From Thermoplasmata archaeon (GTDB taxonomy: Archaea > Thermoplasmatota > Thermoplasmata > Lutacidiplasmatales > UBA184): a DNA stretch of 64,000 nt. Within the stretch, counting starts at the first letter, position 1. Each line of letters opens with the position of its first letter. The notes under the pieces were generated by a model, which was given only the letters and a program-made list of their open reading frames with translations, had not been told where the DNA came from and searched no databases. The stretch spans positions 1,930-65,929 of the forward strand of contig DATJNY010000006.1 of assembly GCA_035507575.1 (NCBI GenBank). The letters are read 5' to 3'. Positions 28,218 to 63,012 of this stretch are shown here, one piece after another. Made by a program: the position numbers and the translations under genes.

Positions 28218-29048
28218 CTACTTGCGCGCCGGAGTGCGGCGGCGCGCGGCCACTCGGGTGACGAATATAAAGACCGCCCCGAAGAACGCGACGGCACCGG
28301 CGAGATACCAGAGCGTGTAGTTCGGCGGGGGACCCGGCACGTAGAACGTCGTGGAGTACGTCGTCCCGCCGCCCGCGAACGCGACGAGCCCGTGCTCGTT
28401 GACGAGCGAGACGGTGAAGGTGTGGTCGCCGCTCGAGAGCCCGAGCGTCGCGTACTGGAACGTCGCGACGTAGCTGGAGTGACCGGTGAGGGTCGGGACG
28501 CTGATCGAGCCGACCGGGGCGCCGTCGAGGTCGACGGTGAGCGAGAACGCGAGGATCGTCGAGCTCGTCGTCGAGAGGATCGTCATCGAGAGCGTGTACG
28601 GCTGCACCACGTTGACGGTGTAGGTGAGGTTGATCGACGCGTTCTCGCTCCCGTAGGTGGAGGTGATCTCGACGAGGATCGTGAGCGCCTCGGTGACGTT
28701 CCCGACGGTGAGCAGCGTCTGCTGGGGCGTCCCGTTCAGGATGCCGGACTCGGTCGGGGAGAGCGAGACCCCGGTCGTGTTGACGCCCGTGACGGACGCG
28801 TAGAACGTGATGTTCCCGACCTGGGTGCCGTTCGCCGCGATCGCCGGGCCGCCCGTTCCGTTGATGCCGAGGAACTTGTTCGCGTTGTAGGCGAGCACCT
28901 TCGGTCCGGTGATGTTCCCCGCGACCGGCGTCGTCGCGCTCGCGTCGGCGGTGATCCGGCCGGGCCCCAGATGCGAAGCGCCGACGGCCCCGGCGAGACC
29001 GGCGGTCACGAGGAGCGCCAGGATGGCGAGCGGGAGGAGGAGCCTCAC
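28218..29048 (-). CDS. Secreted, C-terminally anchored, sequon-rich protein (putative N-glycoprotein)
   Basis: The GTG at 29048 overlaps the aglB stop (GTGA). It has a signal peptide ([24 protein letters not shown]), at least nine N-x-S/T sequons, and a C-terminal TM helix plus basic tail ([17 protein letters not shown]). Confidence 0.55.
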
Positions 29049-32000
29049 CGGCGCACCCACCTCCGGCTCCGCCACCAGCGGTACGTGATCACGCCCAGCA
29101 CGAGGGCGATCGCCGGGACGAACGAGAGCAGCGGGATCACCCAGTCGGGAAGGCCCGACGGAGGCGACCCGATCGACGGACCGGTGACCGTGACCGGCGC
29201 CGTGCCGTTCGAGTTCCCCGTCGTGATCGAGGCGGTCGGCACGGCGATCGTCGTCGACGCCTGGTACGACCCGCTGTGGTTCACGACGGACGCCTGGACG
29301 GTCACGTGGCCAACGGGCGTGAAGATCGACGACGTCGCGGTGAGGTTCACGGAGTACGTCGAGTTGGTGAACGCCGCGATCGAGACCGTCGGGTTCGCGA
29401 GCGGTCCCGAGACGCTGCGGAAGCCGACCTGCCATCCGAGCACGGCGATCCGCGCCGCGTCGACGACGCTGAGCGTCACGGTCTCGGGCACGTTACCGGT
29501 GTTGGCGAGGTAGAACGGCACGAGGGCGTGGCTGATCCCGATCTGCGGCGGCGACGACGTGGTCGCCCCGACGCCGATCCCATAGAACGGAACGACCGTG
29601 ACGGTCGGGCTGATCGAGCCGATCGAGGTGCCGTTCGCGAGCTCGAAGCTGATGACGACCCCGGGATGGGTGGCGGCGGTGTTCGCCGGCACCTGGATGA
29701 CGACGTTGCCCGAGACGGACTTCCCGGCCGGACCCGGCTGGAGGGTGACGTTCGAGAACGAGTACGTGAATCCCCAGTAGGACGGGGACCCGACGGGAGT
29801 GACGGTGACCGGAACGTTCCCGGTGTTGCGGATCGTGAACGCGAACGACGCCGTGCCGGGGGACGTCACCGTCGCGCTGGTCGCCCCGACGATCGTCGCG
29901 TTCGTGCGGTACACGTACTGGTAGGTGAGGTCGAGCGTCACGCCGACGTTGCCGCTCACGACCTTCACCGTCGCGCTCGCGTTCGCGTCCGCGGGGAGGC
30001 CGTTCGGCAGGCCGTAGGAGGAGGCGTGGAGCGTGTACGTTCCGACCGGGAGCGCGACGAGCAGTCCCCCGGACGGGCTCACGTTCTGGTACTGGGCGAC
30101 GACGCCGAAGGCGTTCGTCACCGTGACGTTCGCCGGAGCGAGCAGCGACGCGCCGGACGGCGGGGCGATCGCGATCGACGCCGCCCAGGTCGGCGCGAGG
30201 AGGATCGAGACGGGCGCGGAGGCGGCCGCCGAGACCGTCACGCTCGCGAACCCGGCGAGCGGTTCGCTACCTCCCCCGCCGGCCGCGTAGAGGGAGTAGC
30301 GGCCCGGAAGCACCCGAAGCGCGAAGGAGCCGTTCGCCGAGGTCGTGACGGAGAGCGCCGGGGCGGTCGACGGCCCATAGATCCGGAGCGTGCCCGAGAT
30401 CAAGCCGGGGACCCCCGTGGCGGAGAGCGTGCCATTCAGCCAGACGAGCTCCGTCGAACCGACCACGGGGACCGAGCACGAGGCCCCGCTCGAGCCGAGC
30501 GTGCAACTCGCCCCCGGCTCCGAGACCCAGTCCTCGAAGTAGTTGCCGGTCGAGCTCGCGACCTCCTGACGGGCCGTGAGGGAGACGGCGTACGTCGCCG
30601 CGCCGGGCAGCGTCGCCGAGAACGTCCCGTTCTCGACGGGGACGAGCGCGGTCGCCCCGGACGGGGCCGTGAGCGTCGCGACCGCCGAGACGGAGACGAG
30701 TTCGCCATACGGGTCGTGCAGCGTGCCGGAGAGCGTGTAGCCGACGGTCGTGAGCGCCAGCGAGGGCGTCACCTTGCCCGTCGCGGAGATCGTCACCGGC
30801 ACGAGGACGCTGTACGCCGTGGAGCCCGAACGCGTCGTGGCGTACGCGGAGTAGCTCCCCGGTGGCGCGAAGAATCCCTTCGTGTAGGCGGTCCCGTTGA
30901 CCGTCGTGTGGAATCCGGCGCTCGAGAGCGTGACGTTCGTCGCCCCGAGGACCGCTCCCGTGAGGAGCGAGATCGTCCCGGTCGAGTTCGTCTGCGAGAC
31001 GAGGGTAAAGGAGGTGCTCGCGACGACCGCGCCGAACGCGATCGTGATCGAGCCCGGCGCCGTCGGACGGTACTGGAGCGAGCCGTTCCCCGTCCCGGCG
31101 AAGCCCGAGATCGAGTAGGTGCCCGGCGGGAGGCCCGTCGTCCAGCTCGGTCCTCCGATCAACGTGCGGTTCACCGCGGTCACGCTCTCGGCCGTGAGGT
31201 TGAGCGTGATCGAGGTGCCGGAGGGAACGCCGGTCACGGTGATCGTCGTGGGAACCGTGGTGAGCGAGAGTGGGAACTTCGACATCGCGGCGAGGCCGGT
31301 CGGGGAGATCCCGCACTCGGACGACGGAACGAACCCGACGAGGCCGGCCGAGACGCAGTACGCCGTGGCGGAGAGGGGCAACGCTTGAGGCACGTAGACC
31401 GCCGCGATGCCGCTCGAGTCCGCGAGCGCGGTGACCGACGGCCCCGCCGAACCGGCGGAGACGGTGACCCGGGCCCCGGCCGCGGCGAGCCCCGGAGTCG
31501 TCCCCGCGGTGGTGCCCACGAAGAACCGGGCGGCGACCGACGTGGACGGCACGAGATTGAGCGCCGTCGGATAGGCGAGCGCCACCGAACCGAGCGCCGC
31601 GTAGACGGTGCTGCCCGAGGCGTTCGAGCCCTGGAGCGCGAGGACGGAGTAACTGCCGGCCGGCAGGTAGAACGCGTACGCGCCCGAAGCGGCCCACGTC
31701 ACGACCGGATCACCGGCCGACGTGTACGCGAGGACGGCGGTCGGCGTCGAGGAGGACGCGCCCGAGGCCGTCGCCACGCTTCCGGAGAGGCGGATCGCCG
31801 GCGTCAGCGTGATCGCGGTGGCCGCGTTCGGGGTGAGGGAGGAGGCGGCGATCTCCCCCAAGCCGGCGTAGAGCGTCGCCCCCACGAACCCGAGCGCCGA
31901 GACGGAGTAGTTGCCGAGCGGGAGCGAAGCGGTGGCCACGCCGTTCGGGCCCGTGAGGACGGTGGTCCCGTTCACCGCGGCCGCCTGGAGCGACGCGATC

Positions 32001-35000
32001 GGCGAGACGGAGCTGTTCGAGTACGACGCGATCGGCGAGAACTGCACCGGAATGTTCGCGGCCGGCGCGCCGTTCGCGGCGAGCGTGACCGAGACCGTCG
32101 CGGTCGGAACGAGCGTCAGGTTCGTCGCGAACGTCGAGCTCGGGCCGCTGATCACCACCCGCACGCCGGCGGACCGCTCGGAGGTGCCGGGCAAGGTCGC
32201 CACGAGCGTGTAGTTGCCGGGCGGGAACCCGGAGAGGGTGAAGTTGCCGGTCGCGTTCGTCGTGTTCGTCTGGGAGAATCCGCCGGCGCTCGAGAGCGAG
32301 ACGACCGCCCCGTTCGCGAGGGAGCCCGAGCTCAAGTACACCTTCCCCGACACGCCTCCGGCCCCCAGCCCCGCCGTCGCGTTGGTCGGGACGGCCGGCG
32401 TCACCGTCAGGTCGGTCTCCGTGTAGTTGTAGCCGCCGAAGAGGACGTTGTAGTGGTAGATCCCCGGCGGAACGTTCGTGAGCGAGAACGCTCCGCTCGC
32501 GTCGGTCGTCACGGTGATCTTGGAGAGGTTGGTCGATCCCCACAGCACGACCTTCGCGTTCGAGAGGAGCGGATCCGTGGAGACGTAGGCGGAGTTGTTC
32601 GCCGTGTTGTAGTAGACGAAGCCCGAGACGGAGCCCGCCGGGACCGTGATCAGCTCCTGGATGCTCGGGGCGTCGAACGAGAGGCCGAGCGCGTTCGAGA
32701 CGGTGATGTTCACCTGCTTGAGGAGGATGTTGCCCTGCTGGCTCAGCCCCTCGAACGTGCCGGTCGTCACGTTGATGCTGTCGTTCCCGGGGGGGAGGAC
32801 CAGCGAGAAGGCGCCGTCCGGGGCGGTGACCGCGGTCATGTGCGGGATGCCCCACTGGTCGAAGACGGTGACCCGCGCGCCGCCGACGGGCGCCCCGTTC
32901 GGCAGGCGGACGTCCCCGAAGACGGTCTGGCCGGGGTAGTACTGCAGCATCGACTCCCCGCCCTCGAAGTACATCGTCGCCGAGGTGTTGGCGACCCCGA
33001 CGCCGGCGGCCTGCTGCGCGAGCGCCTGCCACTGGTTCGTGGCGACGAAGCAGCTCGGGTCGGTCTTCGCCTGGGTCGCGTTGTCGCAGTAGTACGCCGT
33101 CTTGTAGACGACCTCGAAGTGCTGGAGCATCCAGCCGGGCTCGACCGGGTCGCTGATCAGCGATCCCTCGAGACCCGGGATCCCCGCCGACTCCCCGATG
33201 TCCGTCCCGTTGTACCCGAAGTACGTCCGGTAGATCATCGAGTTGTAGAACGGCGCGAAATAATTGATGTAGTAATTCACGGGAGTCACGTCGGCGGGGA
33301 CCGAGCCGAGCGGGTAGTAGTTCCCGTCGGAGCCCAGCACGGTGACGTTGAAGTACGTCGTGGGGACGCCGGCCGAGTCGATGATGCGGCCGGTCAGGTC
33401 GGCGGGCGCGTAGTAGATGCCCGTATCGGTGCCGCTGAACGGGATGAGCCGGCTGTCCGCCATGTCGTAGCGGACCGACCATCCCGTGTACGCCTGGACG
33501 TCGTCGTAGATCTTCGCGACGCCGCTCAGCGTCTGCGAGGTCGCGATGAAGTACGACACCGCCATGTACATCGCGTTCTGCGCGGTCAGCGTGTTCGGAT
33601 TGACGGGCAGGTAGCGGTCGGGATGCGCGACCACGAGGCCGACGTCGGAGCTCTGGTTCGCGAGGAGGTTGTGGAGCTGCGTGAGGTTGAGCCCGTCGCT
33701 CGAGAGGATCGTGTTCAGCCCCGCGGGTAGGTACGTCGCGCCGGATTTCGTCTGCTCGGCGGAGAGGAGGGTCGTCGTGAGGATCGCGATCGCGTTCGAC
33801 TCGTTCTGCGCCAAGAGGAACTGGCCGGCGGGGTCGATTCCGTTCTGGAAGTTGTCCGCGACGGACGGATGGTTGCCCTGATCGATCGCCTGGAAACCGT
33901 AGTCCCACCAGCTCACGAACGCCGGACGTTGGGAGACCGGTACGTTCGTATCCTGTTGGGCGAGCCAATTGTAGCCGGCGCTATCGTACTGGTTCGACGT
34001 GTCGATCGAGGTCCCCGCGGCACCGAAGTAGTTCCCGCTCGTCGATTGATTCCCTTTGAGGAACGACGGGAGGGTGTCGTAGACCTGCGACGAGAGCGCG
34101 GTCTTCGTGTTGCCCGGGATCCCCGCGTCGATCGACACCCAGACGTTGGGGAGCACGACGACGAGGACGACGAGGAGGACCAGCACGTGGCGAGGCTTGA
34201 ACGCCTTGCGGAAGGCGGCGGCCTGGCTGCGCCGATCGGAGAGCGAGGCGACGGTCCGCCGGAGTTCCGGGTAACTCCCGACGTCCAGCGCGCGCTTGAT
34301 CGCTTCCGCCGGCAGGAGCGCGAACGCGGGAGAACCGAGCAGGAAGAACTTCGCGGCCGAGATCGGCAGATAGATGGAGAGCACCGCGAAGACGAGGAAG
34401 ACGACGTGCCAGCGCTTGAAACGCCCCTTCGCGAGCGTGTAGATGAAGATCGCGAGGCCCGCGAACGCGAGGAAGAACGTGACCACCCCGTAGCCCACGA
34501 CGAGCTCGTCGATCGACGGCGCCTGGGCCTCGGCGACGGTCGAGTAGATCAGGGTCTTCGCGAAGTATCCCTGCCCCGTGACGATGTTGACGAAGTACGT
34601 CGGTTCGAAGACCGCGAGGAATGCGGCCGCGGCGACGACGAGGAGCCCCAGGGCGGGGATCGAGAAGACCCACGGTACGTCCCGCAACAGAAGGAACGGC
34701 AGCAGCAGGACGAGGACTCCGAAGAACAGCAGGAGCGGCAGGTCGAACCAGGTCGCGAACTGGTGTTGGACGAGGTAGTACGGGATCGCCATCGGGAACC
34801 CGACGAGCCCGACGATCCAGGTCACGACGTACAGCCCGAAGGAATCGACGTGGCGGATCCGCTCCGCGATCATCGCGATGAAGATCGAGACGCCGATCAC
34901 CGCGACGGCGTACGTGTACCCCTGCCAGGCGAGGGCGAGCGCCCCGAGGCAGACGCCGGTGAACACCGCCCATTTGACCGCCGTGCGTTCGGTCCGGAGG

Positions 35001-35641
35001 AACGCCCGTAACCCCGGAAGGTACTGGGACGGGTGGCGGTAGCTCTCGATCCACCGACGCGATCCGACCGCCTTGACGGTCCGGATGTAGGCGTAGATCG
35101 TGATCAGGATCACGAAGGTGTAGAACGAGAGATAGTTCGCGTAGCCGAAGATCGAGGAGTCGATGTTCGCGCTCAAGAACGGGAAGATCAACGCGGCGAT
35201 GAGACCCATGCGCTTCCCGCTGACCTCCCGGCCGATCAGGTAGACCGGGAACACGCCCAGCGCGGCCCAGAGCGGGGCCTGGAGATCGAGGAACCACGCC
35301 CCCGCCGCGACGGCGTTGCCCCCGAACGCCGGAGCGAAGACGATCCCGAGGACCGCGTTCATCCAGTCGAACAGCGGCTCCCGGGGATTGTACCCCCCGT
35401 AGGGATAGTGGAGCAGGGGATCGAAGACGAGATTCTGGTGGTTCAGGATGATGTACGTCGTGACGCGCGAGTGGTAGTAGGAGTCCGAGCCGCCCGCGTA
35501 GCTGAACAGCGGGCCGAACTGCTGGATGATCGGGTACGTCCAGATCGTTCGGATGGCGAACGCCATCCCGAACGCGGCGAGCAGAATGGCGACCGTCCAC
35601 CCGTGACGATGCCACCAACCCGTCTGAGTCGACTCCATCAC
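29045..35641 (-). CDS. aglB: Archaeal oligosaccharyltransferase AglB (STT3 family) with a C-terminal surface-domain extension of about 1300 aa
   Basis: It has a polytopic N-terminal core with GGSDSYYH and the WWDYG catalytic motif (33896..33910). From about residue 905 there are tandem beta-sandwich repeats, then CARDB/NEW3-like NTGNVP segments, and a C-terminal TM anchor (IPLLSFVPAIALVLGVITYRWW). Confidence 0.9.
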   Translation of the reverse strand: MMESTQTGWWHRHGWTVAILLAAFGMAFAIRTIWTYPIIQQFGPLFSYAGGSDSYYHSRVTTYIILNHQNLVFDPLLHYPYGGYNPREPLFDWMNAVLGIVFAPAFGGNAVAAGAWFLDLQAPLWAALGVFPVYLIGREVSGKRMGLIAALIFPFLSANIDSSIFGYANYLSFYTFVILITIYAYIRTVKAVGSRRWIESYRHPSQYLPGLRAFLRTERTAVKWAVFTGVCLGALALAWQGYTYAVAVIGVSIFIAMIAERIRHVDSFGLYVVTWIVGLVGFPMAIPYYLVQHQFATWFDLPLLLFFGVLVLLLPFLLLRDVPWVFSIPALGLLVVAAAAFLAVFEPTYFVNIVTGQGYFAKTLIYSTVAEAQAPSIDELVVGYGVVTFFLAFAGLAIFIYTLAKGRFKRWHVVFLVFAVLSIYLPISAAKFFLLGSPAFALLPAEAIKRALDVGSYPELRRTVASLSDRRSQAAAFRKAFKPRHVLVLLVVLVVVLPNVWVSIDAGIPGNTKTALSSQVYDTLPSFLKGNQSTSGNYFGAAGTSIDTSNQYDSAGYNWLAQQDTNVPVSQRPAFVSWWDYGFQAIDQGNHPSVADNFQNGIDPAGQFLLAQNESNAIAILTTTLLSAEQTKSGATYLPAGLNTILSSDGLNLTQLHNLLANQSSDVGLVVAHPDRYLPVNPNTLTAQNAMYMAVSYFIATSQTLSGVAKIYDDVQAYTGWSVRYDMADSRLIPFSGTDTGIYYAPADLTGRIIDSAGVPTTYFNVTVLGSDGNYYPLGSVPADVTPVNYYINYFAPFYNSMIYRTYFGYNGTDIGESAGIPGLEGSLISDPVEPGWMLQHFEVVYKTAYYCDNATQAKTDPSCFVATNQWQALAQQAAGVGVANTSATMYFEGGESMLQYYPGQTVFGDVRLPNGAPVGGARVTVFDQWGIPHMTAVTAPDGAFSLVLPPGNDSINVTTGTFEGLSQQGNILLKQVNITVSNALGLSFDAPSIQELITVPAGSVSGFVYYNTANNSAYVSTDPLLSNAKVVLWGSTNLSKITVTTDASGAFSLTNVPPGIYHYNVLFGGYNYTETDLTVTPAVPTNATAGLGAGGVSGKVYLSSGSLANGAVVSLSSAGGFSQTNTTNATGNFTLSGFPPGNYTLVATLPGTSERSAGVRVVISGPSSTFATNLTLVPTATVSVTLAANGAPAANIPVQFSPIASYSNSSVSPIASLQAAAVNGTTVLTGPNGVATASLPLGNYSVSALGFVGATLYAGLGEIAASSLTPNAATAITLTPAIRLSGSVATASGASSSTPTAVLAYTSAGDPVVTWAASGAYAFYLPAGSYSVLALQGSNASGSTVYAALGSVALAYPTALNLVPSTSVAARFFVGTTAGTTPGLAAAGARVTVSAGSAGPSVTALADSSGIAAVYVPQALPLSATAYCVSAGLVGFVPSSECGISPTGLAAMSKFPLSLTTVPTTITVTGVPSGTSITLNLTAESVTAVNRTLIGGPSWTTGLPPGTYSISGFAGTGNGSLQYRPTAPGSITIAFGAVVASTSFTLVSQTNSTGTISLLTGAVLGATNVTLSSAGFHTTVNGTAYTKGFFAPPGSYSAYATTRSGSTAYSVLVPVTISATGKVTPSLALTTVGYTLSGTLHDPYGELVSVSAVATLTAPSGATALVPVENGTFSATLPGAATYAVSLTARQEVASSTGNYFEDWVSEPGASCTLGSSGASCSVPVVGSTELVWLNGTLSATGVPGLISGTLRIYGPSTAPALSVTTSANGSFALRVLPGRYSLYAAGGGGSEPLAGFASVTVSAAASAPVSILLAPTWAASIAIAPPSGASLLAPANVTVTNAFGVVAQYQNVSPSGGLLVALPVGTYTLHASSYGLPNGLPADANASATVKVVSGNVGVTLDLTYQYVYRTNATIVGATSATVTSPGTASFAFTIRNTGNVPVTVTPVGSPSYWGFTYSFSNVTLQPGPAGKSVSGNVVIQVPANTAATHPGVVISFELANGTSIGSISPTVTVVPFYGIGVGATTSSPPQIGISHALVPFYLANTGNVPETVTLSVVDAARIAVLGWQVGFRSVSGPLANPTVSIAAFTNSTYSVNLTATSSIFTPVGHVTVQASVVNHSGSYQASTTIAVPTASITTGNSNGTAPVTVTGPSIGSPPSGLPDWVIPLLSFVPAIALVLGVITYRWWRSRRWVRR
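29150..32929 (-). repeat. Protein-level tandem repeats (carboxypeptidase-regulatory-like beta-sandwich units) within the aglB extension
   Basis: About ten recurrences of the pattern G-x-F-x-L-x(2-4)-P-[PA]-G-x-Y (for example DGAFSLVLPPGN, SGAFSLTNVPPGIYHY, TGNFTLSGFPPGNYTLVA, NGSFALRVLPGRYSLYAA, LLVALPVGTYTLHAS). Boundaries are approximate. Confidence 0.6.
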
Positions 35642-35684
35642 CGCGGCTCTCCCCGAACCGGCGGCGCGCGAGACCTGGGGGGTG

Positions 35685-35692
35685 TATAAATA
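35685..35692 (-). promoter_or_regulatory. TATA box (TATTTATA on the minus strand) upstream of aglB
   Basis: A strong AT-rich box 47-50 nt upstream of the GTG/ATG pair at 35641/35638, which implies aglB has its own promoter. Confidence 0.5.
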
Positions 35693-35769
35693 GGCTGCCC
35701 GTCCCCGGCGGTCCGGCCGTCAGAAATTCGACGTCGCGCGTCGCCCCGACGCATCGCGCGAGCGGCCGC

Positions 35770-36297
35770 TCAGTCGACCGCCCGGAAGCGGTAGAACCAC
35801 CGACCGTCGCCGAGCGCGTACGGCTCGACGCGCACGCGATCGCCCACGTGGAGCCCGGTCCACGCCCGACCTTCGATCCGCCCGAAGAGCCGGAGCGGCG
35901 AGCCGTCCAGGTCGACGAGCCCGACCGCGAACGGGACCTCCGCCTCGAGGCCGAGCGGGGCGCCGCCCAGGACGGCGCTGAACGCGTAGATCGTGCCCGT
36001 CTCGGGTAGGTCGGCCCAGTCGAGATCCTCGGTATGACACGTCGGGCAGGCGGTCCTCGGCGGCCAGTGCCACGCGTCGTCCTTCCGGCAGCGGGTGGTC
36101 GAGAGCCGACCCTCCCGGAGTCGGTCGTAGAACCGGGAGAGCCGCGTTTGGTCCGCGCCTTCGAGCGGGAAGAAGTCCAGGAGGAACGGTCGCTTCTCCT
36201 TCGGGCGGTCGGGAGCCGGGGCGGTTCGCGCTTCGTCCGACCCGGCGGGAGGGGGCCCGGACGGCGCGGTACGACGGGCGCGCACTTCGGCGCTCAC
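35770..36297 (-). CDS. DUF35 OB-fold / Zn-ribbon protein (thiolase partner), paralogue A
   Basis: The GTG at 36297 overlaps the thiolase stop (GTGA). It has an OB-fold C-terminus (GTIYAFSAV...VGLVDLDG...RVRVEP). The Zn ribbon is partly degenerate (RC...CPTCH), and there is an N-terminal extension of about 50 aa. Confidence 0.75.
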   Translation of the reverse strand: MSAEVRARRTAPSGPPPAGSDEARTAPAPDRPKEKRPFLLDFFPLEGADQTRLSRFYDRLREGRLSTTRCRKDDAWHWPPRTACPTCHTEDLDWADLPETGTIYAFSAVLGGAPLGLEAEVPFAVGLVDLDGSPLRLFGRIEGRAWTGLHVGDRVRVEPYALGDGRWFYRFRAVD

Positions 36298-37478
36298 GAG
36301 GCGCGCCCTCCCTGGTAGACCATGACGGAGTGGACGTTCGCGCTCCCCGACAGGTTGTGGACGAGCGCCCACTCGGGGTCGGGGACCTGGCGCGCCGTCG
36401 GCACCTCCTTCGCGAACTGCCGGTAGACCTCCGCGGCCTGGGCGATCCCCGTCGCGCCGAGCGGATGGCCGCATCCGAGCAGCCCTCCGCGGGGATTCAC
36501 CACCAGGTCGCCGCCCAGGTCGCCGCGGCCGTCCGCGGCGAACGCCCCTCCTTCGCCCGGGGCGCAGAGACCGAGGGCCTCGTATTCGACGATCTCGGAG
36601 ATCGTGAAGCAGTCGTGGATCTCCGCGAAATCGACGTCGTGGATCGAGATATGCGCCCGACCGAGCGCTTCCCGGGCCGCATGGGTCAGTCCCGTCCACT
36701 GCGTGAGCGACCCCGCGTGGGCGAGGTTGTGGAAGTCCGAGTACTGCCCCGTACCCCGGACCCAGACGGGGGAGTCCGTGTATCGCCGGACGAGCTCCTC
36801 GCCGACGAGGACGACCGCCGCTGCGCCGTCCGTCATGGACGAGCAGTCGCCGAGCCGAAGCGGCGGAGCGACGACGGGGAGGCCGAGGAGCTTCTCGACG
36901 GAGAACTGCTTCGAATAGAACTGGGCGTGCGGGTTCGTGTTCGCGAACCGGTGATTCTTCGCCGAGACGGCGGCGAGTTGCTCGGGGGTGGTGCCGTATT
37001 CGAGCATGTGGCGTTGCGCGACCATCGCGAAGAACGGGGGCGCCGTCGCGCCATGCGGGCCGTCCCACGGCCGGTCCATGACGCATCCCATGGCGGTGTT
37101 CGCCTCGGGCATCGACGGGAGATTCATCTTTTCCACCCCGACCGCGACCGCGACGTCGGAGAGGCCGGAGGCGATCGACGCGTAGGCGGAGCGGATCGCG
37201 CTCTGCCCCGAGGCGCAGGCGAGTTCCGTCCGCTGGATCACCCGGTGCGGTCGCAGACCCATCTGCTCGGCCGCGAGCGGTGCGACGTGCGACTGGAACG
37301 CGAACCGCTCGGGTTCCGCGGCGCCGACGAACAGCGAGTCGACGTCCTCCGCCCGGAGCGCCGGCATCGCCCGGAACAGCGCGGCTCCGACCTCCTGCGC
37401 CATCTCGGGCCAGGTGGTGGGACGGACCCCAAATACGGTGGTCGCGGCGCCGACCAGGGCGACTCCCCGACCGCTCAT
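36294..37478 (-). CDS. Thiolase (SCP2/archaeal type), paralogue A, catalytic motifs intact
   Basis: ELACASG (Cys88, codon 37215..37217), EIHDCFTIS and [10 protein letters not shown] are all present. The ATG at 37478 overlaps the upstream stop (ATGA). Confidence 0.85.
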
Positions 37479-38608
37479 CGGGCCTCCTCGCGCAGGGCCC
37501 GGAGGACCAGGTCGCCCGCGCCGCTCGTCGTCACCGTGCCGCCCTGGTCGTAGGTTCGGGCCGCGCCGCTCTGGAGCACGGCCGCGAGCGCCCGTTCCAA
37601 CCGGTCCGCCGGCCCCGTGAGACGAGCGTCCTGGTGCTGCCCGCCGAGCCACCGGAGCATCTGCTCGAGCGCGAAGAACGTCGCGAACGGATTGACCTGA
37701 TTCTTGCCGGCGTACTTCGGGGCGCTACCGTGGACCGGCTCGAACATCCCGTGCCCGGCGCCGATGTTTCCCCCCGACGCGAAGCCCATCCCGCCCTGGA
37801 GCACCGCGGCGAGGTCCGTGATGATGTCCCCCATCATGTTCGTCGCGACGACGACGTTGTAGCGCTCGGGGTTCCGGACCAGCCACTGCGTGAACGCGTC
37901 GACGTACGCGTAGTCCCGTTCGATCTCGGGAAACTCCGTCGCGACCCGATCGAACGTCTCGCGGAAGAATCGGCATCCCTCCATCACGTTCGACTTGTCG
38001 ACACACGTGACGCGCCGCACCCCGTCGCCCGGGGCGCCACGCGCCCGGGCCCGCGCCAGCTCGAAAGCGTAACGGATCACCCGCTCCGCCCCCTTCCTCG
38101 TGATGATCCGCGTGTCGATCGCGACCTCGGTCTCGTCCGCGCGTCGCAGTCGTCCGCGCGCCGGCGTGTAGAGGTCCTCGGTGTTCTCCCGGACGATCAC
38201 CATGTCGACGTTCTTGGGCGACCAGACCTCCCGGTACTCTCCGCTGATCCGGTGCTGGACGCCGGGATACAACCGGCACGGCCGAACGTTCGCAAACAGG
38301 TCGAGCGACTCCCGGAGACCGAGCACGAGCGCCCGCCCCGCGATGTCCCCGTTGGGGAGCGTCGCGCCGGGCCATCCGACGGCCCCGAGCAGGATGGCGT
38401 CGGCGCGATGCGCCGCCGCCTGACCCTCGGGATCCCACTCGCGCCCCGATCGAAGGTAGTACTGGCCCCCTCCCGCGTACTCCGTCGCGTGCCAGGGCGC
38501 CGGTCCGGACTCAGCGAGGGCCGCGAGGACTCGCTGGCCCTCCCGGACGACCTCCGGGCCGGTCCCGTCGCCCGGGAACACCGCGATCTCGTAGCCCGCG
38601 TCCTTCAT
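37475..38608 (-). CDS. Beta-decarboxylating dehydrogenase (3-isopropylmalate / homoisocitrate / isocitrate dehydrogenase family)
   Basis: [22 protein letters not shown] and [12 protein letters not shown]...GFASGGNIG motifs. 377 aa. Confidence 0.85.
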
Positions 38609-39132
38609 GGAGCGGCGGGTGCGGCCGCCTTCCGCGCGGCGAGTTCCGCCCGCACCTTCTCCACGAGCCCCCCGGCGTCCAGGAGGCCGAGAAGATGGGG
38701 CGGCAGCGGGGGGAACGTCACGGAGGCTCCGGTGCGGACGTTGGTGATCCGCCCGGCGCGCATCTCGAGCCGGGCGGTGTCCCCCTTCTCGAAGATCGCC
38801 CGGACCCCGCGCGCCTCCACGGTCGGGATCCCGAGATTGATCGAGTTCCGGAAGAAGATCCGCGCGAAGGAGTCGGCGACGACCGCGCCGACCCCCGCCG
38901 CCTTCATCGCGGCGGGCGCGTGCTCGCGGCTCGACCCGCATCCGAAGTTCTCGTCGGCGATGATGATGTCTCCGGGTCGGGCGTTCGCCGCGAACTCGGG
39001 CAGGGCGATCTCGAATACGTGAAGCTTCAGCTGCTGCGGATCGATGATGGTCAGGTACTTTCCGCCGATGATCCCGTCGGTGTCGACGTCCTTGCCGAGC
39101 GTCCAGACGCGCCCTTCGATGACGTCCTGCAC
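38605..39132 (-). CDS. Aconitase-family isomerase small subunit (LeuD / homoaconitase small subunit type)
   Basis: [22 protein letters not shown] and [13 protein letters not shown] motifs. 175 aa. Confidence 0.85.
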
Positions 39133-39141
39133 GTGCGCCCC

Positions 39142-40425
39142 CTAGGCCAGCTCTCGGTGATCGATGATCTCGCCCCGGATCGCGGCCGCCACGGTCGCCG
39201 CCGGCGACATGAGGTAGATCCGCGCCTCCTTGGCGCCCATCCGGCCCGGGAAGTTTCGGTTCGAGGACGACGCGCAGACCTCCTCCGGAGCGAGGATCCC
39301 CATGTTCCCCCCGAAGCAGGCCGAGCAGCTTGAGTTCGTGAATACCGCCCCCGCCTCGGTGAACGTCTCTACGATCCCTTCCCGCAGACACTGCTCGTAG
39401 ATCGAGGTGGATGCGGGCGAGACGATGAATCGCACCCCCTTCGCGACCTGGTGGCCCTTCATCAGGGCGGCGCCCTCGCGGAGGTCCTCGATCCGCGCGT
39501 TGGTGCACGAACCGAGGAACACCTGATCGACCTTGATGTGCTCCCGCGCCACCTCCGGCAACGGCCGCACGTTGTCCGGCGAGTACGGGCAGGCGACCAT
39601 CGGCGGCATGCCGTCGAGGTCGATGTCGACCACGCGCTCGTACTCGGCATCCGAATCGGCGTGCAAGGGATGCATCGCGTGCTTGGCGACCGGGGCGAGA
39701 TAGTCGAACGTCTTCTGATCCGGCTCGACCATCCCGCACTTCGCCCCCATCTCGGTGGTCATGTTGCAGATCGTGAACCGCTCGGGCATCGACAGGGCGC
39801 GGATCGCCGGGCCCGTGAACTCGACGGCCTTGTAGGTCGCGCCCGTCGTCTTGATCTCGCCGAGCACGCGGAGCACGAGGTCCTTCGCCGTCACGCCGGG
39901 GGCGAGCGAGCCGCGTACGCGGATCTGGATCGTCGGAGGTACCTTGAGCCAGAGTTGCCCGAGCGCGAGGACGGCGGCCATCTCGGTCGGGCCGACGCCG
40001 GCGGCGACCGCGCCCATGGCGCCGAGCATGTTCGTGTGGGAGTCGGTCCCGACCGCGAGGTCCCCCGGCACCACCCAGCCGTTCTCGGCGAGGATCTGGT
40101 GGCAGATGCCGTGACGACCGACGTCGTAGAAGTGGGGGAGGCCGGTCTCGGCCGCAAACTTTCGAAGGATGCGATGGAGGACCGCCGCTCCCTCCGTCGA
40201 CGCCGGCACCCAGTGATCGATCGCGATCACGACGCGCTCGGGGTCCCAAACGCGCTCGGCCCCCATCTGGTGGAACGGCCCGACCGTCTGGGCGCCCTGT
40301 TCGTGCATCATCGCGAGATCGACAGTTCCTTCCACGATCTCTCCGGGCACGACCCGCTCCGCCCCCGACGCCCGAGCGAGGATCTTCTCGGCGAGCGTGA
40401 GGCCGTGGCCGTTCGAGCGCGTCAT
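39142..40425 (-). CDS. Aconitase-family isomerase large subunit (LeuC / homoaconitase large subunit type)
   Basis: VAIDHWVP, GTDSHT, GSCTNARIEDL and NSSCSACFGG motifs. 427 aa from the ATG at 40425. Confidence 0.9.
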   Translation of the reverse strand: MTRSNGHGLTLAEKILARASGAERVVPGEIVEGTVDLAMMHEQGAQTVGPFHQMGAERVWDPERVVIAIDHWVPASTEGAAVLHRILRKFAAETGLPHFYDVGRHGICHQILAENGWVVPGDLAVGTDSHTNMLGAMGAVAAGVGPTEMAAVLALGQLWLKVPPTIQIRVRGSLAPGVTAKDLVLRVLGEIKTTGATYKAVEFTGPAIRALSMPERFTICNMTTEMGAKCGMVEPDQKTFDYLAPVAKHAMHPLHADSDAEYERVVDIDLDGMPPMVACPYSPDNVRPLPEVAREHIKVDQVFLGSCTNARIEDLREGAALMKGHQVAKGVRFIVSPASTSIYEQCLREGIVETFTEAGAVFTNSSCSACFGGNMGILAPEEVCASSSNRNFPGRMGAKEARIYLMSPAATVAAAIRGEIIDHRELA

Positions 40426-41669
40426 GCCGCAGGCGCCCCGATGCCGATCGCCTCGACCATCGTCCAGAACTCGTCGTCGGAAAGTCCGGGACGCTCGAAA
40501 AGGTGTCGGTATTCCCGGAGGAATCGATGGAGGTCCGCTTTCGAGCGGGACTCCGTGCTGGTCTTGATGCGTTGCAGGAGCTCGAGCAGGAGCGGGTCCG
40601 GCGCCGCGAATCCCCGTTCCTTGAGCTTTTCGACGACGGCCGCCTTCCCGGTATGTTTTCCGAGGATCATCTGGCGGCGAGCGCCGACGGTCTCGGGTTG
40701 CAGCGGCTCGTAGGTGAGGGTGTTCGCGAGGATACCGTGGGTGTGGATCCCCGCTTCGTGGGAGAACGCGTTGTACCCCACGAGGGCCTTGTTGGCGGCG
40801 ACCGGGATGCCCGAAAGGTCCTCGACCAGTCGGGAGAGCTCGGTGAGCCGTTCGGTCCGGATCCCCGTTCGGATCCCGTAGAGCGCCTCGAGCTCCACGA
40901 CGACCTCCTCGAGCGAGGCGTTGCCGGCGCGCTCGCCCAGGCCGTTCACGCAGACGTGCGGCGCCCGAACTCCGCATTCGAGCGCGGTGAGGGTGTTGGC
41001 CGCGGCCAGTCCGAGATCGTCGTGGCAGTGGACGGAGAGGTCCTTCGGCTGCACTCGACGCTGGAACTCGCGCAAGTACCACCGGAACGTGAGCGGCGTC
41101 ATGATCCCGACCGTGTCCGCGACGACGAGGCGATCCGCGCCCGCGTCCTGGACCTCCCGATAGAGCCGTTCCACGAAATCGAACGGCGCCCGCACCGTGT
41201 CCTCGGTGACGAACGCCGTGTGGAGCCCCGCCTCCTTCGCCTGCCGGACCGTCTTCAGCGACGCGGCCAGCACCTCCTCCTGGCTCATCTTGAGCTTGTA
41301 CCGGAGGTGGACCTGGCTCGCGGCCACGAAGATCGCGATGTGGCTCGCGCCGCTGCGGATGACCGCGTCGACGTCGGCGGGAACCGTGCGCGCCGCGGCG
41401 AGGATCTTCGTCTTCAGTCCCGACGAGGCGAGCAACCGGACCGCGCGCGCCTCCTCCTCGGAGACGACGGGGATCCCCGCATTGACGACGGAGACGCCGA
41501 TGTCAGCGAGGATCGTCGCGACCTCGAGCTTCTCTTCTGGCGAGAAGTGCACGCCGGGCGTCTGCTCCCCGTCGCGCAGCGTCTCATCCCAGAAGACGAT
41601 CGGGTCCGGGATCTCCCGCTCCCGGGCCGTCTCGGTGTGGTAGTTCTCTACGAGGCGGGGCTCCGCCAT
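40422..41669 (-). CDS. 2-isopropylmalate / homocitrate / citramalate synthase family protein, short form without the LeuA regulatory domain
   Basis: DETLRDGEQ and HCHDDLGLAAANT motifs. At 415 aa it has no room for the LeuA-type C-terminal dimerisation/regulatory domain. Confidence 0.85.
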   Translation of the reverse strand: MAEPRLVENYHTETAREREIPDPIVFWDETLRDGEQTPGVHFSPEEKLEVATILADIGVSVVNAGIPVVSEEEARAVRLLASSGLKTKILAAARTVPADVDAVIRSGASHIAIFVAASQVHLRYKLKMSQEEVLAASLKTVRQAKEAGLHTAFVTEDTVRAPFDFVERLYREVQDAGADRLVVADTVGIMTPLTFRWYLREFQRRVQPKDLSVHCHDDLGLAAANTLTALECGVRAPHVCVNGLGERAGNASLEEVVVELEALYGIRTGIRTERLTELSRLVEDLSGIPVAANKALVGYNAFSHEAGIHTHGILANTLTYEPLQPETVGARRQMILGKHTGKAAVVEKLKERGFAAPDPLLLELLQRIKTSTESRSKADLHRFLREYRHLFERPGLSDDEFWTMVEAIGIGAPAA

Positions 41670-41827
41670 CGACCGCTTCTACCCGACGGCAGCGCTTAAC
41701 TCTTGGGCCGGCGCACCGTCCGGTCCCCGCCGGCCGGTCCGATTCCGGCGCGCGCCCGCCTGATGAGTTAAATACGCTCCGGTACTCGAACCGGATACAA
41801 GTCGACCTCGACCTGTTTCTGGAGACC

Positions 41828-43621
41828 ATGACGACTCCCGCTGCGCATACCACCCCGCTGGTCGCCGAGTCCGGCCCCGCGGGCGCTCACCCACCTGCCG
41901 AATTGACCGACCTCAGCGTGATGATCGGAGGGCAGGGTGGGGACGGGACGCTCACCGTCTCGGACCTCCTCGGCCGGTACTTCCGGAAGAACGGTCTCTA
42001 CGTCTACACCTCGCGCAATGTCCTCTCGCGCATCCGAGGGGGACACGCGGACGCCTCCGTTCGCGCCTCGCGGGACCCGGTCTCCGCCGTGAAACCCCAG
42101 GTCGACGTCCTGGTCGCCTTCGACAACGAGGCGGTCGAGATGGGTCGGGCGGAGATGGCCGGCCACGGCTACATCATCTACGACTCGACCGCGTTCCACG
42201 TCGACCTGCCGAACGCCTCCGGATTCCCGTTCGCGACGATGGTCGGCGGGCCGCTCGGCCAACCGATTTTCAAGAATACCGCGGCGTACGGCGCGCTCTC
42301 CGTCCTGCTCGGTTTCGACCCCGTCAAGACCCGGGAAGTGATCGAAGAGCGGTTCAAGCGGCGCGGGGGCGAAGCGCTCGAGAAGAACCTGAAGGCGCTC
42401 GAGATCGGGCGGAAGGCGGCGCTCGAAGCGCCCGGCGTGGCGGGCCGGTTCAGCGTCGCCGAGGGCGACGCCCACGATCTGATCCTGACCACGGGGAACC
42501 AGGCCGTCGCACTCGGCTTCGTCGTCGGCGGCGGGCGGTTCTTCGCGGGATATCCGATCACCCCGGCAACGGAGGTGATGGAGTACCTCCAGCGGTACCT
42601 CCCCGCCTTCGGCGGCATCGTGCGCCAGGCGGAGGACGAACTCGCCGCGGTCAACATGATCATCGGTGCGGCGTACGCGGGCACCCGGGTGATGACGAGC
42701 ACGAGCGGTCCGGGCCTCTCGTTGATGACGGAAGGCATCGGCCACGCCGGCACCGCCGAGATCCCGATCGTTGTCGCCGACTGCCAGCGGGTCGGCCCGA
42801 GCACCGGTCAGCCGACGCGCCACGAGCAGTCGGATCTCTCCCACCTCGCGAACCTCGGGCACGGGGAGTATCCCCGGTTCATCGTCGCGCCGTCGAATCC
42901 CGAGGACTGCTTCCAACTCACGATCGACGCCCTCAACCTCGCCGAAAAGTGGCGGGTGCCGGTGATCCTGCTGCTCGACCAGGCGCTCTGCCAGAACACC
43001 ACCACGAGCGCGCGATTCGACCTTTCGGGCGCCCGCGTCGATCGCGGCAAGCGCATCACCGCCACCGACACCGCGCAACTCACGGAGTACAAGGCCTACA
43101 AGTTCACGGACGACGGGATCAGCCCGTACGCGGCGCCCGGCACTCCGGGTCTCTGGGCCGAGATCACCGGCAACGAGCACGACGAGTGGGGCCACGTGTC
43201 GGTGAACGCGACGAACCGGGTGAAGATGATGAAGAAGCGAATGGGCAAGATGCAGGCGGCGCGGGACGAGTTGCCCGCGTCGCGCCTGTTCGGCGACCCC
43301 CGGGCGAAGATCGGTCTGATCGGCTACGGGAGCACGTCGGGCCCGATCCTCGAGACCCAGTCGATCCTCGCCGCGCGCGGTGTCCCGACCCGGTACCTCC
43401 AGGCGCGCACCGTTTACCCGGTCCCGGTGCACGAGCTCGACCCGTTCCTCCAGTCCGTCGACGTCGCGTACGTCATCGAGCACAACTACACGGGACAGTT
43501 CGCGCGACTCCTGCGGGAGCACCTTCCGTGGCACCACGCGAAGTTCCGCTCGATCCTCAAGTACGACGGCTACACGTTCCGCACGCCGCAGATCATCGGC
43601 GAGATCAAGGAGGCGGCGTAG
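41828..43621 (+). CDS. 2-oxoacid:ferredoxin oxidoreductase alpha subunit (fused gamma-alpha type)
   Basis: The N-terminal gamma-like domain has IGGQGGDG and the alpha domain has FAGYPITPATE. 597 aa. A GGAG Shine-Dalgarno-like element lies upstream, and a GAGTTAAATA box about 55 nt upstream. Confidence 0.85.
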   Translation: MTTPAAHTTPLVAESGPAGAHPPAELTDLSVMIGGQGGDGTLTVSDLLGRYFRKNGLYVYTSRNVLSRIRGGHADASVRASRDPVSAVKPQVDVLVAFDNEAVEMGRAEMAGHGYIIYDSTAFHVDLPNASGFPFATMVGGPLGQPIFKNTAAYGALSVLLGFDPVKTREVIEERFKRRGGEALEKNLKALEIGRKAALEAPGVAGRFSVAEGDAHDLILTTGNQAVALGFVVGGGRFFAGYPITPATEVMEYLQRYLPAFGGIVRQAEDELAAVNMIIGAAYAGTRVMTSTSGPGLSLMTEGIGHAGTAEIPIVVADCQRVGPSTGQPTRHEQSDLSHLANLGHGEYPRFIVAPSNPEDCFQLTIDALNLAEKWRVPVILLLDQALCQNTTTSARFDLSGARVDRGKRITATDTAQLTEYKAYKFTDDGISPYAAPGTPGLWAEITGNEHDEWGHVSVNATNRVKMMKKRMGKMQAARDELPASRLFGDPRAKIGLIGYGSTSGPILETQSILAARGVPTRYLQARTVYPVPVHELDPFLQSVDVAYVIEHNYTGQFARLLREHLPWHHAKFRSILKYDGYTFRTPQIIGEIKEAA

Positions 43622-43622
43622 G

Positions 43623-44489
43623 ATGGTGCAGTCGGCGAAACCCGTCGCCCCGATCTGGTGCCCCGGCTGCGGGGACTTCAGCCTGCTCGCGGCCGTGAAG
43701 AAGGCCGCCGCGAACCTGAAGATCCCGACGCACGACCTGGTCCTCGTCGGCGGGATCGGCTGTTCGGGGTCGATCCACAACTTCCTCGAGGTCAACGGGA
43801 TCCACGCGCTGCACGGTCGACTCCTCGCCCAGGCGGTCGGCGTGAAGCTCGCCAACCCGGATCTGACCGTGGTCGCCGCCGGGGGCGATGGCGACGGCTA
43901 CGCGATCGGGATGGGGCATTTCATGCACGCGTTCAAGAAGAACGCCTCGATCCTCTACATCGTGATGAACAACGAGACGTACGGGCTCACGAAGGGCCAG
44001 CCGTCCCCCACGAGCCAGATCGGCTTCGAGGGGAACGTCGAGGCCCCGTTCGACGCGATCCTGAGCGCGCTGTCGATCCCGGCGCCGAACTTCATCGCCC
44101 GCACGTTCTCCGGCGACCCGAAGACGATGACCGCGGTGCTGGAAGAGGCGATCCGGTTCAACCACGAGCGCCGCGGCTTCGCGTTCGTCGAGGATCTCTC
44201 GCCGTGCGTGACGTACAACGACACGTACAAGCTCTGGCGCGAGAAGGTCGTCGACGTCTCGAAGCTCCCCGGATACGACCCGACCGACCGCAAGACGATG
44301 TTCCGGCTCTACCTCGAGACGACCGAGAGCGGAAAGATCCCGATCGGCGTGATGCACCGTCCGAAGGAGACGGTCCGCGCAGGTCTCGAGACGAAGCTGC
44401 TCGGCGAAGCGAAGGGACCGGCGCGGTCCGAGATCGCCGTCGAGCCGAACCTCGCGGCGTACCAGAAGCTCCTCGCCGGGCTCGCGTAG
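43623..44489 (+). CDS. 2-oxoacid:ferredoxin oxidoreductase beta subunit (TPP-binding)
   Basis: WCPGCGDF, GIGCSG and GGDGDGYAIG motifs. The ATG at 43623 lies 2 nt after the alpha-subunit stop. Confidence 0.9.
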   Translation: MVQSAKPVAPIWCPGCGDFSLLAAVKKAAANLKIPTHDLVLVGGIGCSGSIHNFLEVNGIHALHGRLLAQAVGVKLANPDLTVVAAGGDGDGYAIGMGHFMHAFKKNASILYIVMNNETYGLTKGQPSPTSQIGFEGNVEAPFDAILSALSIPAPNFIARTFSGDPKTMTAVLEEAIRFNHERRGFAFVEDLSPCVTYNDTYKLWREKVVDVSKLPGYDPTDRKTMFRLYLETTESGKIPIGVMHRPKETVRAGLETKLLGEAKGPARSEIAVEPNLAAYQKLLAGLA

Positions 44490-52023: not shown

Positions 52024-52109
52024 CGGCGGAACGACCGACCCCGGGAGATAGCGTTTGCCCGGTGGCCGGGCCGCTGAGGATAAAGGGGGACGGCCGCGTG
52101 GACCCGACC

Positions 52110-61831: not shown

Positions 61832-61833
61832 CC

Positions 61834-63003: not shown

Positions 63004-63012
63004 GGGGGGCCC

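Follow-up and report, generated by a model that had tools for sequence, protein, structure and literature searches.

A probable leucine-type elongation operon translationally coupled to a thiolase/DUF35 pair in Lutacidiplasmatales, a lineage whose mevalonate-entry thiolase is probably a pseudo-enzyme

We analyzed 64,000 nucleotides of DNA from Thermoplasmata archaeon (contig DATJNY010000006.1 of assembly GCA_035507575.1; hereafter, the window). The DNA, with ~70% GC, belongs to an archaeon from the order Lutacidiplasmatales (UBA184). At 35770-41669, the window contains six minus-strand genes in which a 2-oxoacid elongation module, probably of the leucine/isoleucine type, is coupled to a thiolase and its DUF35 partner. 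These six genes stay together in every related genome that we examined. The same window also encodes a canonical mevalonate-entry trio of the synthase for 3-hydroxy-3-methylglutaryl-CoA (HMG-CoA synthase or HMGCS), thiolase, and DUF35, and the thiolase of this trio has lost its catalytic motifs. Our favored explanation, to which we give a probability of roughly 40%, is a composite: two acetyl-CoA condensation modules lie under one promoter, and the thiolase pair possibly supplies acetoacetyl-CoA to the orphaned HMG-CoA synthase.

Six genes in one coupled chain

We told real genes from spurious open reading frames by their GC content at third codon positions (GC3). In this window (~70% GC), the six frames have GC3 values of 0.89-0.91. 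The first gene of the chain encodes a 2-oxoacid:acetyl-CoA synthase of the short-form LeuA/CimA type (40422..41669, 415 aa, ATG start; Pfam domains HMGL-like and HCS_D2). The LeuC-type large subunit of an isomerase follows (39142..40425, 427 aa; Aconitase), and its start overlaps the stop codon of the synthase. The LeuD-type small subunit (38605..39132, 175 aa; Aconitase_C) has a GTG start, 9 nt past the LeuC stop. Next are a beta-decarboxylating dehydrogenase of the 3-isopropylmalate dehydrogenase (IPMDH) type, or LeuB (37475..38608, 377 aa; Iso_dh), which overlaps LeuD, and an SCP2-type ketothiolase with intact catalytic motifs (36294..37478, 394 aa; Thiolase_N/C_1), which overlaps the dehydrogenase. 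The last gene encodes the DUF35 partner (35770..36297, 175 aa; zf-ChsH2 and OB_ChsH2_C); its GTG start lies within the overlap with the thiolase, and its N-terminal 36 residues are variable. Read off the sequence in gene order, the five junctions are ATGA, a 9-nt gap (GGGGCGCAC), ATGA, ATGA, and GTGA.

Five public contigs encode an identical thiolase, and in gene calls made independently on these contigs, all six genes have identical boundaries. A preliminary description of this locus, made from the sequence before any database search, is correct in every detail as to the six-gene chain and its junctions, and Pfam and NCBIfam bear out the family that it assigned to each gene.

As a crude proxy for archaeal TATA boxes, we used AT-rich octamers (a scan for sigma-70 promoters is not relevant to archaea). 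A putative promoter-like TATA/BRE element (AAGAGTTAAGC, 41694..41704, minus strand) ends ~25 nt before the ATG of the synthase. Across 65 loci, this element is one of just two conserved AT-rich blocks (consensus AAAGGTTAAT) in the region between the synthase and its divergent neighbor, a 2-oxoacid:ferredoxin oxidoreductase (OFOR); the conserved TTAA-type box lies ~25-30 nt 5' of the synthase ATG. At the other end of the chain, the sole AT-rich patch between the DUF35 stop and the start of the downstream gene, aglB, is a TATA-like element of AglB (CCTATTTATACA, 35683..35694, minus strand), which is predicted to mark the 3' boundary of the six-gene unit.

Within the chain, there is one weak AT-rich octamer, at 40652-40659 inside the synthase gene, and it is not conserved. 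We found no AT-rich octamer near the leuB-thiolase junction in the window, and just 1 of 64 loci has one in the 300 nt before the thiolase. The sole terminator-like match in the 7.5 kb that we scanned is on the opposite strand, and shuffled sequences give as many. An internal promoter or terminator before the thiolase was thus found neither in the window nor in 63 of 64 relatives, and the break between dehydrogenase and thiolase that the preliminary description had raised as a possibility did not appear. The sequence signals and overlaps suggest that the six genes very probably form a single unit of transcription and translation.

The linkage is conserved across the order

We gathered relatives by scanning one genome per species for the thiolase, which gave 80 loci, and we compared their gene order by using tblastn with the proteins from the window. 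The chain is intact in every fetched locus that is long enough to show it (~80 species-level genomes and a relative with 67% identity). The usual layout is OFOR beta and alpha (divergent), then synthase-LeuC-LeuD-LeuB-thiolase-DUF35, and then, in most cases, AglB. The thiolases of these loci are 77-88% identical. The most divergent member (P0121, 67% identity) has the identical chain and overlaps, but with a Na/H exchanger between DUF35 and AglB. In some loci, further genes separate the synthase from OFOR, or AglB from DUF35; inserts of this kind occur in L036, L056, and L086 (in L086, a Na/H exchanger ahead of AglB). The flanks rearrange while the six genes never separate, and the arrangement is more than chance.

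The overlap that joins the two modules is also the best kept. The 4-nt overlap between leuB and the thiolase is present in 81 of 83 loci, which is the highest retention of all the junctions. The 4-nt overlap is present in 68/70 loci for synthase-LeuC, in 73/78 for LeuD-LeuB, and in 53/80 for thiolase-DUF35, where the other loci have spacings of -1 to +12, save for one outlier. A chance juxtaposition of the thiolase/DUF35 pair with leu genes, which the preliminary description had considered, is effectively excluded: the pair is tied to the four elongation genes in all of the related genomes examined.

A probable module for elongating hydrophobic 2-oxoacids

The preliminary description took the first four genes for a module that elongates 2-oxoacids by one carbon. 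Their families, the scores of the isomerase subunits, and the active-site residues all agree with this. None of the four proteins has lost its catalytic or Fe-S residues.

In the synthase, the HMGL-like domain scores 239 bits (Pfam), and alignment with 3RMJ and 6KTQ shows that the motifs ETLRDGEQ, HCHDD, and GERAGN are present. Pfam reports HMGL-like and HCS_D2 only; the LeuA_dimer domain was not found by Pfam and the protein ends at residue 415, so the claim that the synthase lacks the LeuA regulatory domain holds. Short forms exist among archaeal relatives (the NCBIfam models have 363-371 positions). The best NCBIfam models for the synthase are PRK00915.1-2 (439 bits, cut-off 517) and LEU1_arch (430 bits, cut-off 485), and it falls below both. 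With the model for citramalate synthase, it scores 182 bits (cut-off 450). Among proteins with structures, a homocitrate synthase from S. acidocaldarius (SaHCS, 6KTQ; the top match) and an isopropylmalate synthase from N. meningitidis (NmIPMS, 3RMJ) match it about equally well.

The residues that line the pocket of the synthase (A/A/A/V/V/A) are wholly hydrophobic and are conserved in 66 orthologues. The equivalents of L73, H97, S139, N167, and P169 of E. coli LeuA are A, A, V, V, and A. When aligned to 6KTQ, the pocket has no Arg or His for a distal carboxylate. Specifically, the equivalents of His72 and Arg133 of T. thermophilus HCS (TtHCS), which hold the distal carboxylate of 2-oxoglutarate, are both Ala, and they are Ala or Ser in 66/66 orthologues.

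Both subunits of the isomerase are closer to the isopropylmalate (IPM)/citramalate isomerase of M. jannaschii than to homoaconitase. LeuC scores 438 bits against the large subunit of the IPM/citramalate isomerase (4KP1) and 352 bits against homoaconitase (4KP2), and all three cysteine ligands of the Fe-S cluster are present (C307, C367, and C370). LeuD scores 159 bits against MJ1277 of the IPM/citramalate isomerase (3VBA) and 103 bits against the homoaconitase MJ1271 (2PKP). LeuC and LeuD pass NCBIfam's subfamily cut-offs and score below the LEU2 and leud equivalog cut-offs. The specificity loop of the small subunit, GGKYLTIID, is in the translation just as the preliminary description gave it. 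It reads YLTI here, as compared to YLVY in IPM isomerase and YLRT in homoaconitase. YLT is found in 75 of 76 LeuD orthologues, followed by Ile (67) or Val (9).

The dehydrogenase has the Iso_dh fold, and its catalytic Tyr, Lys, and Asp motifs align. Its best PDB matches are a bacterial IPMDH (3U1H, 208 bits) and a tartrate dehydrogenase (3FLK, 196 bits), and in NCBIfam the best model gives it 315 bits, short of the cut-off (393). The equivalent of Arg85 of homoisocitrate dehydrogenase (HICDH) is Leu, and the equivalents of Leu90/Leu91 of IPMDH are Val/Leu. We take Glu87 to be conserved in IPMDHs; the equivalent here (residue 92) is Arg, and it varies among 81 orthologues (R/A/G/F), with the adjoining hydrophobic residues fixed. 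With such variation inside the clade, the substitution does not count as a fixed change of specificity.

None of the four proteins reaches an equivalog cut-off in NCBIfam, and the synthase and the dehydrogenase do not reach any cut-off at all, so we call genes 1-4 a leucine/citramalate-type module rather than proven LeuABCD. As judged by homology and active-site residues, Leu/Ile-type elongation is the likely function. The preliminary description left the substrate open among pyruvate, 2-oxoisovalerate, 2-oxoglutarate, and oxaloacetate. The choice seems to be narrower than that: the residues that would bind a carboxylate are replaced, which makes 2-oxoglutarate and oxaloacetate unlikely.

We also considered three other assignments. 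Elongation of 2-oxoglutarate by homocitrate synthase (HCS) or AksA, homoaconitase, and HICDH was rejected on the residues at the key positions (Ala in the synthase, Thr-Ile in the small subunit, and Leu in the dehydrogenase) and on the relative scores of the PDB matches. Re-citrate synthase with aconitase and isocitrate dehydrogenase was rejected as well, as the pockets are hydrophobic and nothing in them would bind a carboxymethyl group; a normal citrate synthase is also encoded in the window, at 52056-53240. Finally, we rejected an AcnX-type phosphomevalonate dehydratase for the isomerase: AcnX gives 23.7 bits, which is below its cut-off, versus 370 bits for Aconitase.

The leu-linked thiolase and its DUF35 partner

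To compare the two thiolases in the window, we used the best ~120 matches listed for each, all of which are within the clade. The thiolase of the operon has C88, H288-D-C-F, and H338 (in GHP) in 121 of the 121 orthologues listed. The motifs CxS, HDCF, and GHP are hallmarks of ACAT (PMC12960953). Its best match in the PDB is the archaeal thiolase 6ESQ_A (205 bits), and it is below every NCBIfam cut-off. Going by these residues, the pair is predicted to be catalytically competent and would make or cleave 3-oxoacyl-CoA from acetyl-CoA.

An exhaustive search of 1.84 billion cluster representatives showed that the family of this thiolase is narrow. There is one full-length cluster representative at the 50% identity level, and then a drop to relatives with 43-44% identity. 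These relatives are from low-GC organisms, including a Bathyarchaeia genome. For three outgroup thiolase/DUF35 pairs we examined the context: one is with an electron transfer flavoprotein and acyl-CoA dehydrogenase, one is with a 3HCDH-ECH fusion, and one is with a CoA-transferase and hydantoinase-type genes. None of them is near leu genes. A narrow family whose outgroups are never beside leu genes suggests that the linkage is a single, lineage-specific invention.

In the DUF35 protein, the zinc-ribbon positions are C70, D73, C84, and C87, and the conserved core begins near residue 37. The second of these positions is Asp in 61 of 76 orthologues and Cys in 9. Because the first 36 residues are not conserved, it is uncertain whether the annotated start is real or whether these residues are a flexible linker. 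No HMGCS gene adjoins the leu-linked pair, either in the window or in the fetched loci that span its flanks.

We tried and rejected three specific identities or origins for the pair. Ltp2-type aldolases lack the catalytic cysteines, and their DUF35 domain is fused to a MaoC hydratase; here the thiolase cysteines are present and DUF35 is a free-standing protein of 175 aa with no hydratase domain. BbsAB was rejected on weak scores (194 bits for BbsB, with a cut-off of 750, and 35 bits for BbsA, with a cut-off of 250). A recent duplication of the trio's pair was rejected on identities of 36% (thiolase) and 29% and on the distances.

The mevalonate trio has a thiolase without its catalytic motifs

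The preliminary description overlooked the HMGCS-thiolase-DUF35 trio, which is in the same window, 19 kb from the leu-linked chain. The loss of the trio thiolase's catalytic motifs alters the likely meaning of the leu-linked pair. On the plus strand, the trio comprises HMG-CoA synthase (60779-61831), which scores 505 bits with the equivalog NF003274, above the cut-off, and keeps the E-C-H-N residues; the thiolase (61834-63003), which scores 495 bits with PRK06064, also above the cut-off; and DUF35 (63013-63501), with 119 bits against 6ESQ_E.

All three catalytic motifs of the trio thiolase are lost: the residue at the nucleophile position is Gly instead of Cys, HDCF has become NDAY, and GHP has become GRP. 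Among the 120 orthologues listed (at least 80% identity), the nucleophilic Cys is found in none and Gly is found in 119. Its degree of conservation equals that of the active thiolase, so the protein seems to be maintained and not decaying. It is probably a conserved pseudo-enzyme that is kept as a scaffold and CoA-binding subunit. Archaeal HMG-CoA synthase is inactive if expressed alone (PMC12960953), which would explain why the dead thiolase and the trio's DUF35 are retained. In a literature search, we did not find any published description of dead thiolases in the HMGCS complex of Thermoplasmatota.

Variants at the nucleophile are seen elsewhere. Among the closest cluster representatives of the trio thiolase, Asp, Ser, and Gly are common. 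Two loci from other Thermoplasmatota (L096:3590-7559, from another Thermoplasmata lineage, and L097:4959-7576) have trio thiolases with Ser instead of Cys. Beside the L096 trio, and divergent from it, are genes for a classical thiolase and for a 3-hydroxyacyl-CoA dehydrogenase, as if to replace the lost activity, which suggests that such lineages recruit a second thiolase. On a related contig, with 65% GC (L098:3500-11931), the HMGCS-thiolase-DUF35 trio is intact, and its thiolase is ~50% identical to the trio thiolase from the window. That trio is fused with an acyl-CoA dehydrogenase upstream, and then with a carboxyltransferase, an enoyl-CoA hydratase, a biotin carboxylase, and a biotin carboxyl carrier protein (methylcrotonyl-CoA carboxylase type). 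The fused genes correspond to the steps of leucine catabolism that end at HMG-CoA, and this is an independent link between leucine and HMG-CoA at the level of an operon.

What might the operon do?

In our favored explanation, the operon would be transcribed from the conserved TATA-like element just 5' of the synthase and translated as a coupled chain. Based on homology and active-site residues, genes 1-4 would convert acetyl-CoA and 2-oxoisovalerate to 2-isopropylmalate, 3-isopropylmalate, and then 2-oxoisocaproate, and the isomerase and dehydrogenase may additionally serve in the conversion of pyruvate to 2-oxobutyrate. Genes 5-6 would form 3-oxoacyl-CoA from acetyl-CoA by an anabolic Claisen condensation, giving acetoacetyl-CoA or another short 3-oxoacyl-CoA for lipid synthesis. 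The leu-linked pair may feed the HMG-CoA synthase 19 kb away, whose partner thiolase is dead.

This explanation follows from the combination of an intact leu-linked pair with no adjacent next enzyme and an intact HMGCS with a dead thiolase. It also draws on Sulfolobus acidocaldarius, in which the ketothiolase that is paired with DUF35 works in synthesis and forms a complex with the enzymes that follow it in its pathway; beta-oxidation uses a different thiolase, Saci_1114, and no mention is made of a DUF35 partner for it (bioRxiv 10.1101/2024.07.05.601840). In that system, the docking of DUF35 to the next enzyme pulls the unfavorable condensation forward, and archaea often have several thiolase/DUF35 pairs (same source). 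We lean towards the view that the pair is not the chemical successor of genes 1-4, and two separate modules under common regulation are no less likely than a single pathway. That the pair feeds HMG-CoA synthase is a tentative proposal. If it does, then mevalonate entry would be split in this lineage, the trio thiolase would be a clear natural case of a pseudo-enzyme kept as a scaffold, and the synthesis of leucine and that of lipids would share their regulation at the acetyl-CoA level.

Several observations weigh against this explanation. Genes for beta-oxidation, including fadA and atoB, are reported in Lutacidiplasmatales (PMC9287336), so other thiolases could supply acetoacetyl-CoA. By distance, the leu-linked thiolase is nearest to thiolase/DUF35 pairs from acyl-CoA contexts; the deep nodes of our neighbor-joining tree are weak (31-50%). 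The leu-linked thiolase is only 36% identical to the trio thiolase, so it is no recent copy of it, and the leu-linked DUF35 scores 27 bits against 6ESQ_E, as compared to 119 bits for the trio's DUF35. L096 and L097 have Cys-less trio thiolases yet lack the leu-linked family, so the two traits are not strictly tied. Also, the 80+ genomes all come from one order, which PMC9287336 describes as one family, and they are largely collinear over ~20 kb around the operon, so the conservation is weaker evidence than the number of loci suggests.

The same collinearity is expected if a degradative thiolase that serves beta-oxidation or the breakdown of ketones or acetoacetate, and that is functionally unconnected to leucine synthesis, was inserted once behind leuB in an ancestor and was then inherited by one family. 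The confinement of the thiolase family to one lineage fits such a single event, the three nearest relatives with examined context are in acyl-CoA catabolic surroundings, and the order is predicted to degrade fatty acids (PMC9287336). But the overlap with leuB persists in 81/83 loci while both flanks rearranged, an anabolic operon is an odd place for a co-translated catabolic enzyme, there are no beta-oxidation genes within 10 kb, and the DUF35-paired thiolase is synthetic in the one archaeon studied. We consider this history unlikely, though it is the most credible of the alternatives; if it is correct, then this is an ordinary leu operon with an unusual passenger.

The six genes could instead form one pathway, in which OFOR converts an elongated hydrophobic 2-oxoacid to an acyl-CoA (e.g., 2-oxoisocaproate to isovaleryl-CoA) and the thiolase and DUF35 then form an iso-branched 3-oxoacyl-CoA; or, isovaleryl-CoA might reach HMG-CoA by a leucine shunt. 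In nearly all loci, the lineage with 67% identity among them, OFOR is the conserved divergent neighbor, with a promoter region in common, and the overlap of leuB with the thiolase is the most conserved of the junctions. The pocket of the synthase, with Ala at the positions of L73, H97, and P169 of E. coli LeuA, resembles the pockets of engineered LeuA that are enlarged for longer substrates. The fusion of the L098 trio with leucine-catabolic genes points in the same direction. Yet there is no reductase, dehydratase, or carboxylase for the thiolase's product in or beside the operon, and OFOR is of a generic two-subunit type and could be a central enzyme for pyruvate or 2-oxoglutarate. In the known DUF35 complexes, the enzyme that is coupled to the thiolase follows it in the pathway rather than preceding it. 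No thiolase would be needed for a leucine shunt to HMG-CoA, and such a shunt would make the intact HMGCS redundant. A single pathway is therefore quite improbable in our judgment. If the two chemistries are joined through OFOR, lipids would draw on amino-acid-type intermediates by a new route, by which the lineage would bypass or replace the unfavorable acetoacetyl-CoA condensation despite the dead thiolase of its mevalonate complex.

Least probable of these alternatives is that genes 1-4 are a dedicated line for some larger hydrophobic 2-oxoacid, feeding a specialized product that the thiolase pair would process in the form of a CoA ester, with the true leu genes elsewhere in the genome. The failure of all four proteins to reach an equivalog cut-off (and of the synthase and dehydrogenase to reach any) is consistent with this. 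So are the pocket of the synthase, which is unlike that of bacterial isopropylmalate synthase at five positions, and the dehydrogenase, which matches tartrate dehydrogenase as closely as it does IPMDH and does not have the Glu87 of IPMDH. However, the Glu87 position is variable within the clade (R/A/G/F), both isomerase subunits are clear relatives of the characterized IPM/citramalate isomerase, there are no genes for tailoring, transport, or resistance nearby, and genomes of ~2.1 Mb (PMC9287336) make a second complete leu set less likely.

The host lineage and the flanking genes

The Lutacidiplasmatales are uncultured heterotrophs of acid soils, with ~69% GC and genomes of ~2.1 Mb, and their predicted metabolism includes oxygen respiration and the breakdown of peptides and fatty acids (PMC9287336). 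The article does not discuss the operon, and its supplement does not have KEGG rows for leu genes.

The OFOR has alpha and beta subunits (41828..44489, plus strand) and shares an intergenic region with the divergent synthase. Its Pfam domains are POR, POR_N, TPP_enzyme_C, and PFO_beta_C, and the alpha subunit scores 601 bits with TIGR03710, which is above the cut-off. This neighbor is kept in nearly all loci. Directly downstream of DUF35, with its own TATA-like box, is an oligosaccharyltransferase (AglB/STT3) of 2198 aa with several carboxypeptidase-regulatory-like domains (29045-35641, minus strand). Most relatives keep AglB, but with no more than 41-74% identity; its evolution is thus far more rapid than that of the operon.

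Because of the GC content of 70%, we considered whether the locus might be a bacterial biosynthetic gene cluster. This was rejected: the neighbors include AglB/STT3, TiaS, aS21, and aEF-1beta, and the related records are all from Thermoplasmata. Two conserved genes that adjoin the operon region, encoding proteins of 287 aa (28218-29081, minus strand) and 404 aa (45895-47109, plus strand), have no Pfam match, and the latter is between TiaS and histidyl-tRNA synthetase. By eye only, the translations from the window also include topoisomerase VI-like, catalase-peroxidase-like, and succinyl-CoA synthetase-like genes. Across the whole 64 kb, no Rfam family reaches the gathering threshold, and tRNA genes were not found either.

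Comparison with known systems

The preliminary description knew of no pathway that couples the two chemistries, and our literature search also turned up none that joins DUF35/thiolase with isopropylmalate enzymes. Full-text searches did not turn up a published account of this six-gene operon either.

Genes 1-4 share four enzyme families, their usual order, and hydrophobic pockets with archaeal leuACDB operons and with the isopropylmalate synthase/CimA, MJ0499/MJ1277, and IPMDH of M. jannaschii. They differ in that the synthase has no regulatory domain and in that genes for a thiolase and DUF35 are translationally coupled to leuB. The pathways for coenzyme B (AksA/AksDE/AksF) and for lysine via alpha-aminoadipate (HCS/HACN/HICDH) share the superfamilies and the logic of adding one carbon, but the residues for a distal carboxylate are absent here.

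Genes 5-6 resemble the thiolase/HMGCS/DUF35 complex of M. thermolithotrophicus (6ESQ) in having an SCP2-like thiolase with Cys/HDCF/GHP that is followed by a DUF35 gene. In the original description of that complex, it is reportedly a near-universal entry to the synthesis of archaeal membrane lipids. In contrast, no HMGCS adjoins the leu-linked pair, its DUF35 is distant, and the orthologous trio, at 60779-63501, has a dead thiolase. The ketothiolase/DUF35 pair of the fatty-acid-synthase complex of S. acidocaldarius (Saci_1121/1120) is likewise a second, non-mevalonate pair in an archaeon. That pair clusters with a reductase, a dehydratase, and an enoyl reductase, whereas this one has leucine-type neighbors and no acyl-CoA-processing partner nearby. 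BbsAB and Ltp2-ChsH2 also combine a thiolase-fold subunit with DUF35, but the matches to them are weak (BbsB, 194 bits; BbsA, 35 bits; ChsH2 DUF35, 29 bits).

By the residues that are kept and lost, an order of abundant acid-soil archaea appears to maintain a complex with a non-catalytic thiolase together with a separate, intact pair that is locked to a leucine operon. All six families and both modules were known before. What is new is their conserved, translationally coupled fusion, in a lineage with a pseudo-enzyme as its mevalonate-entry thiolase.

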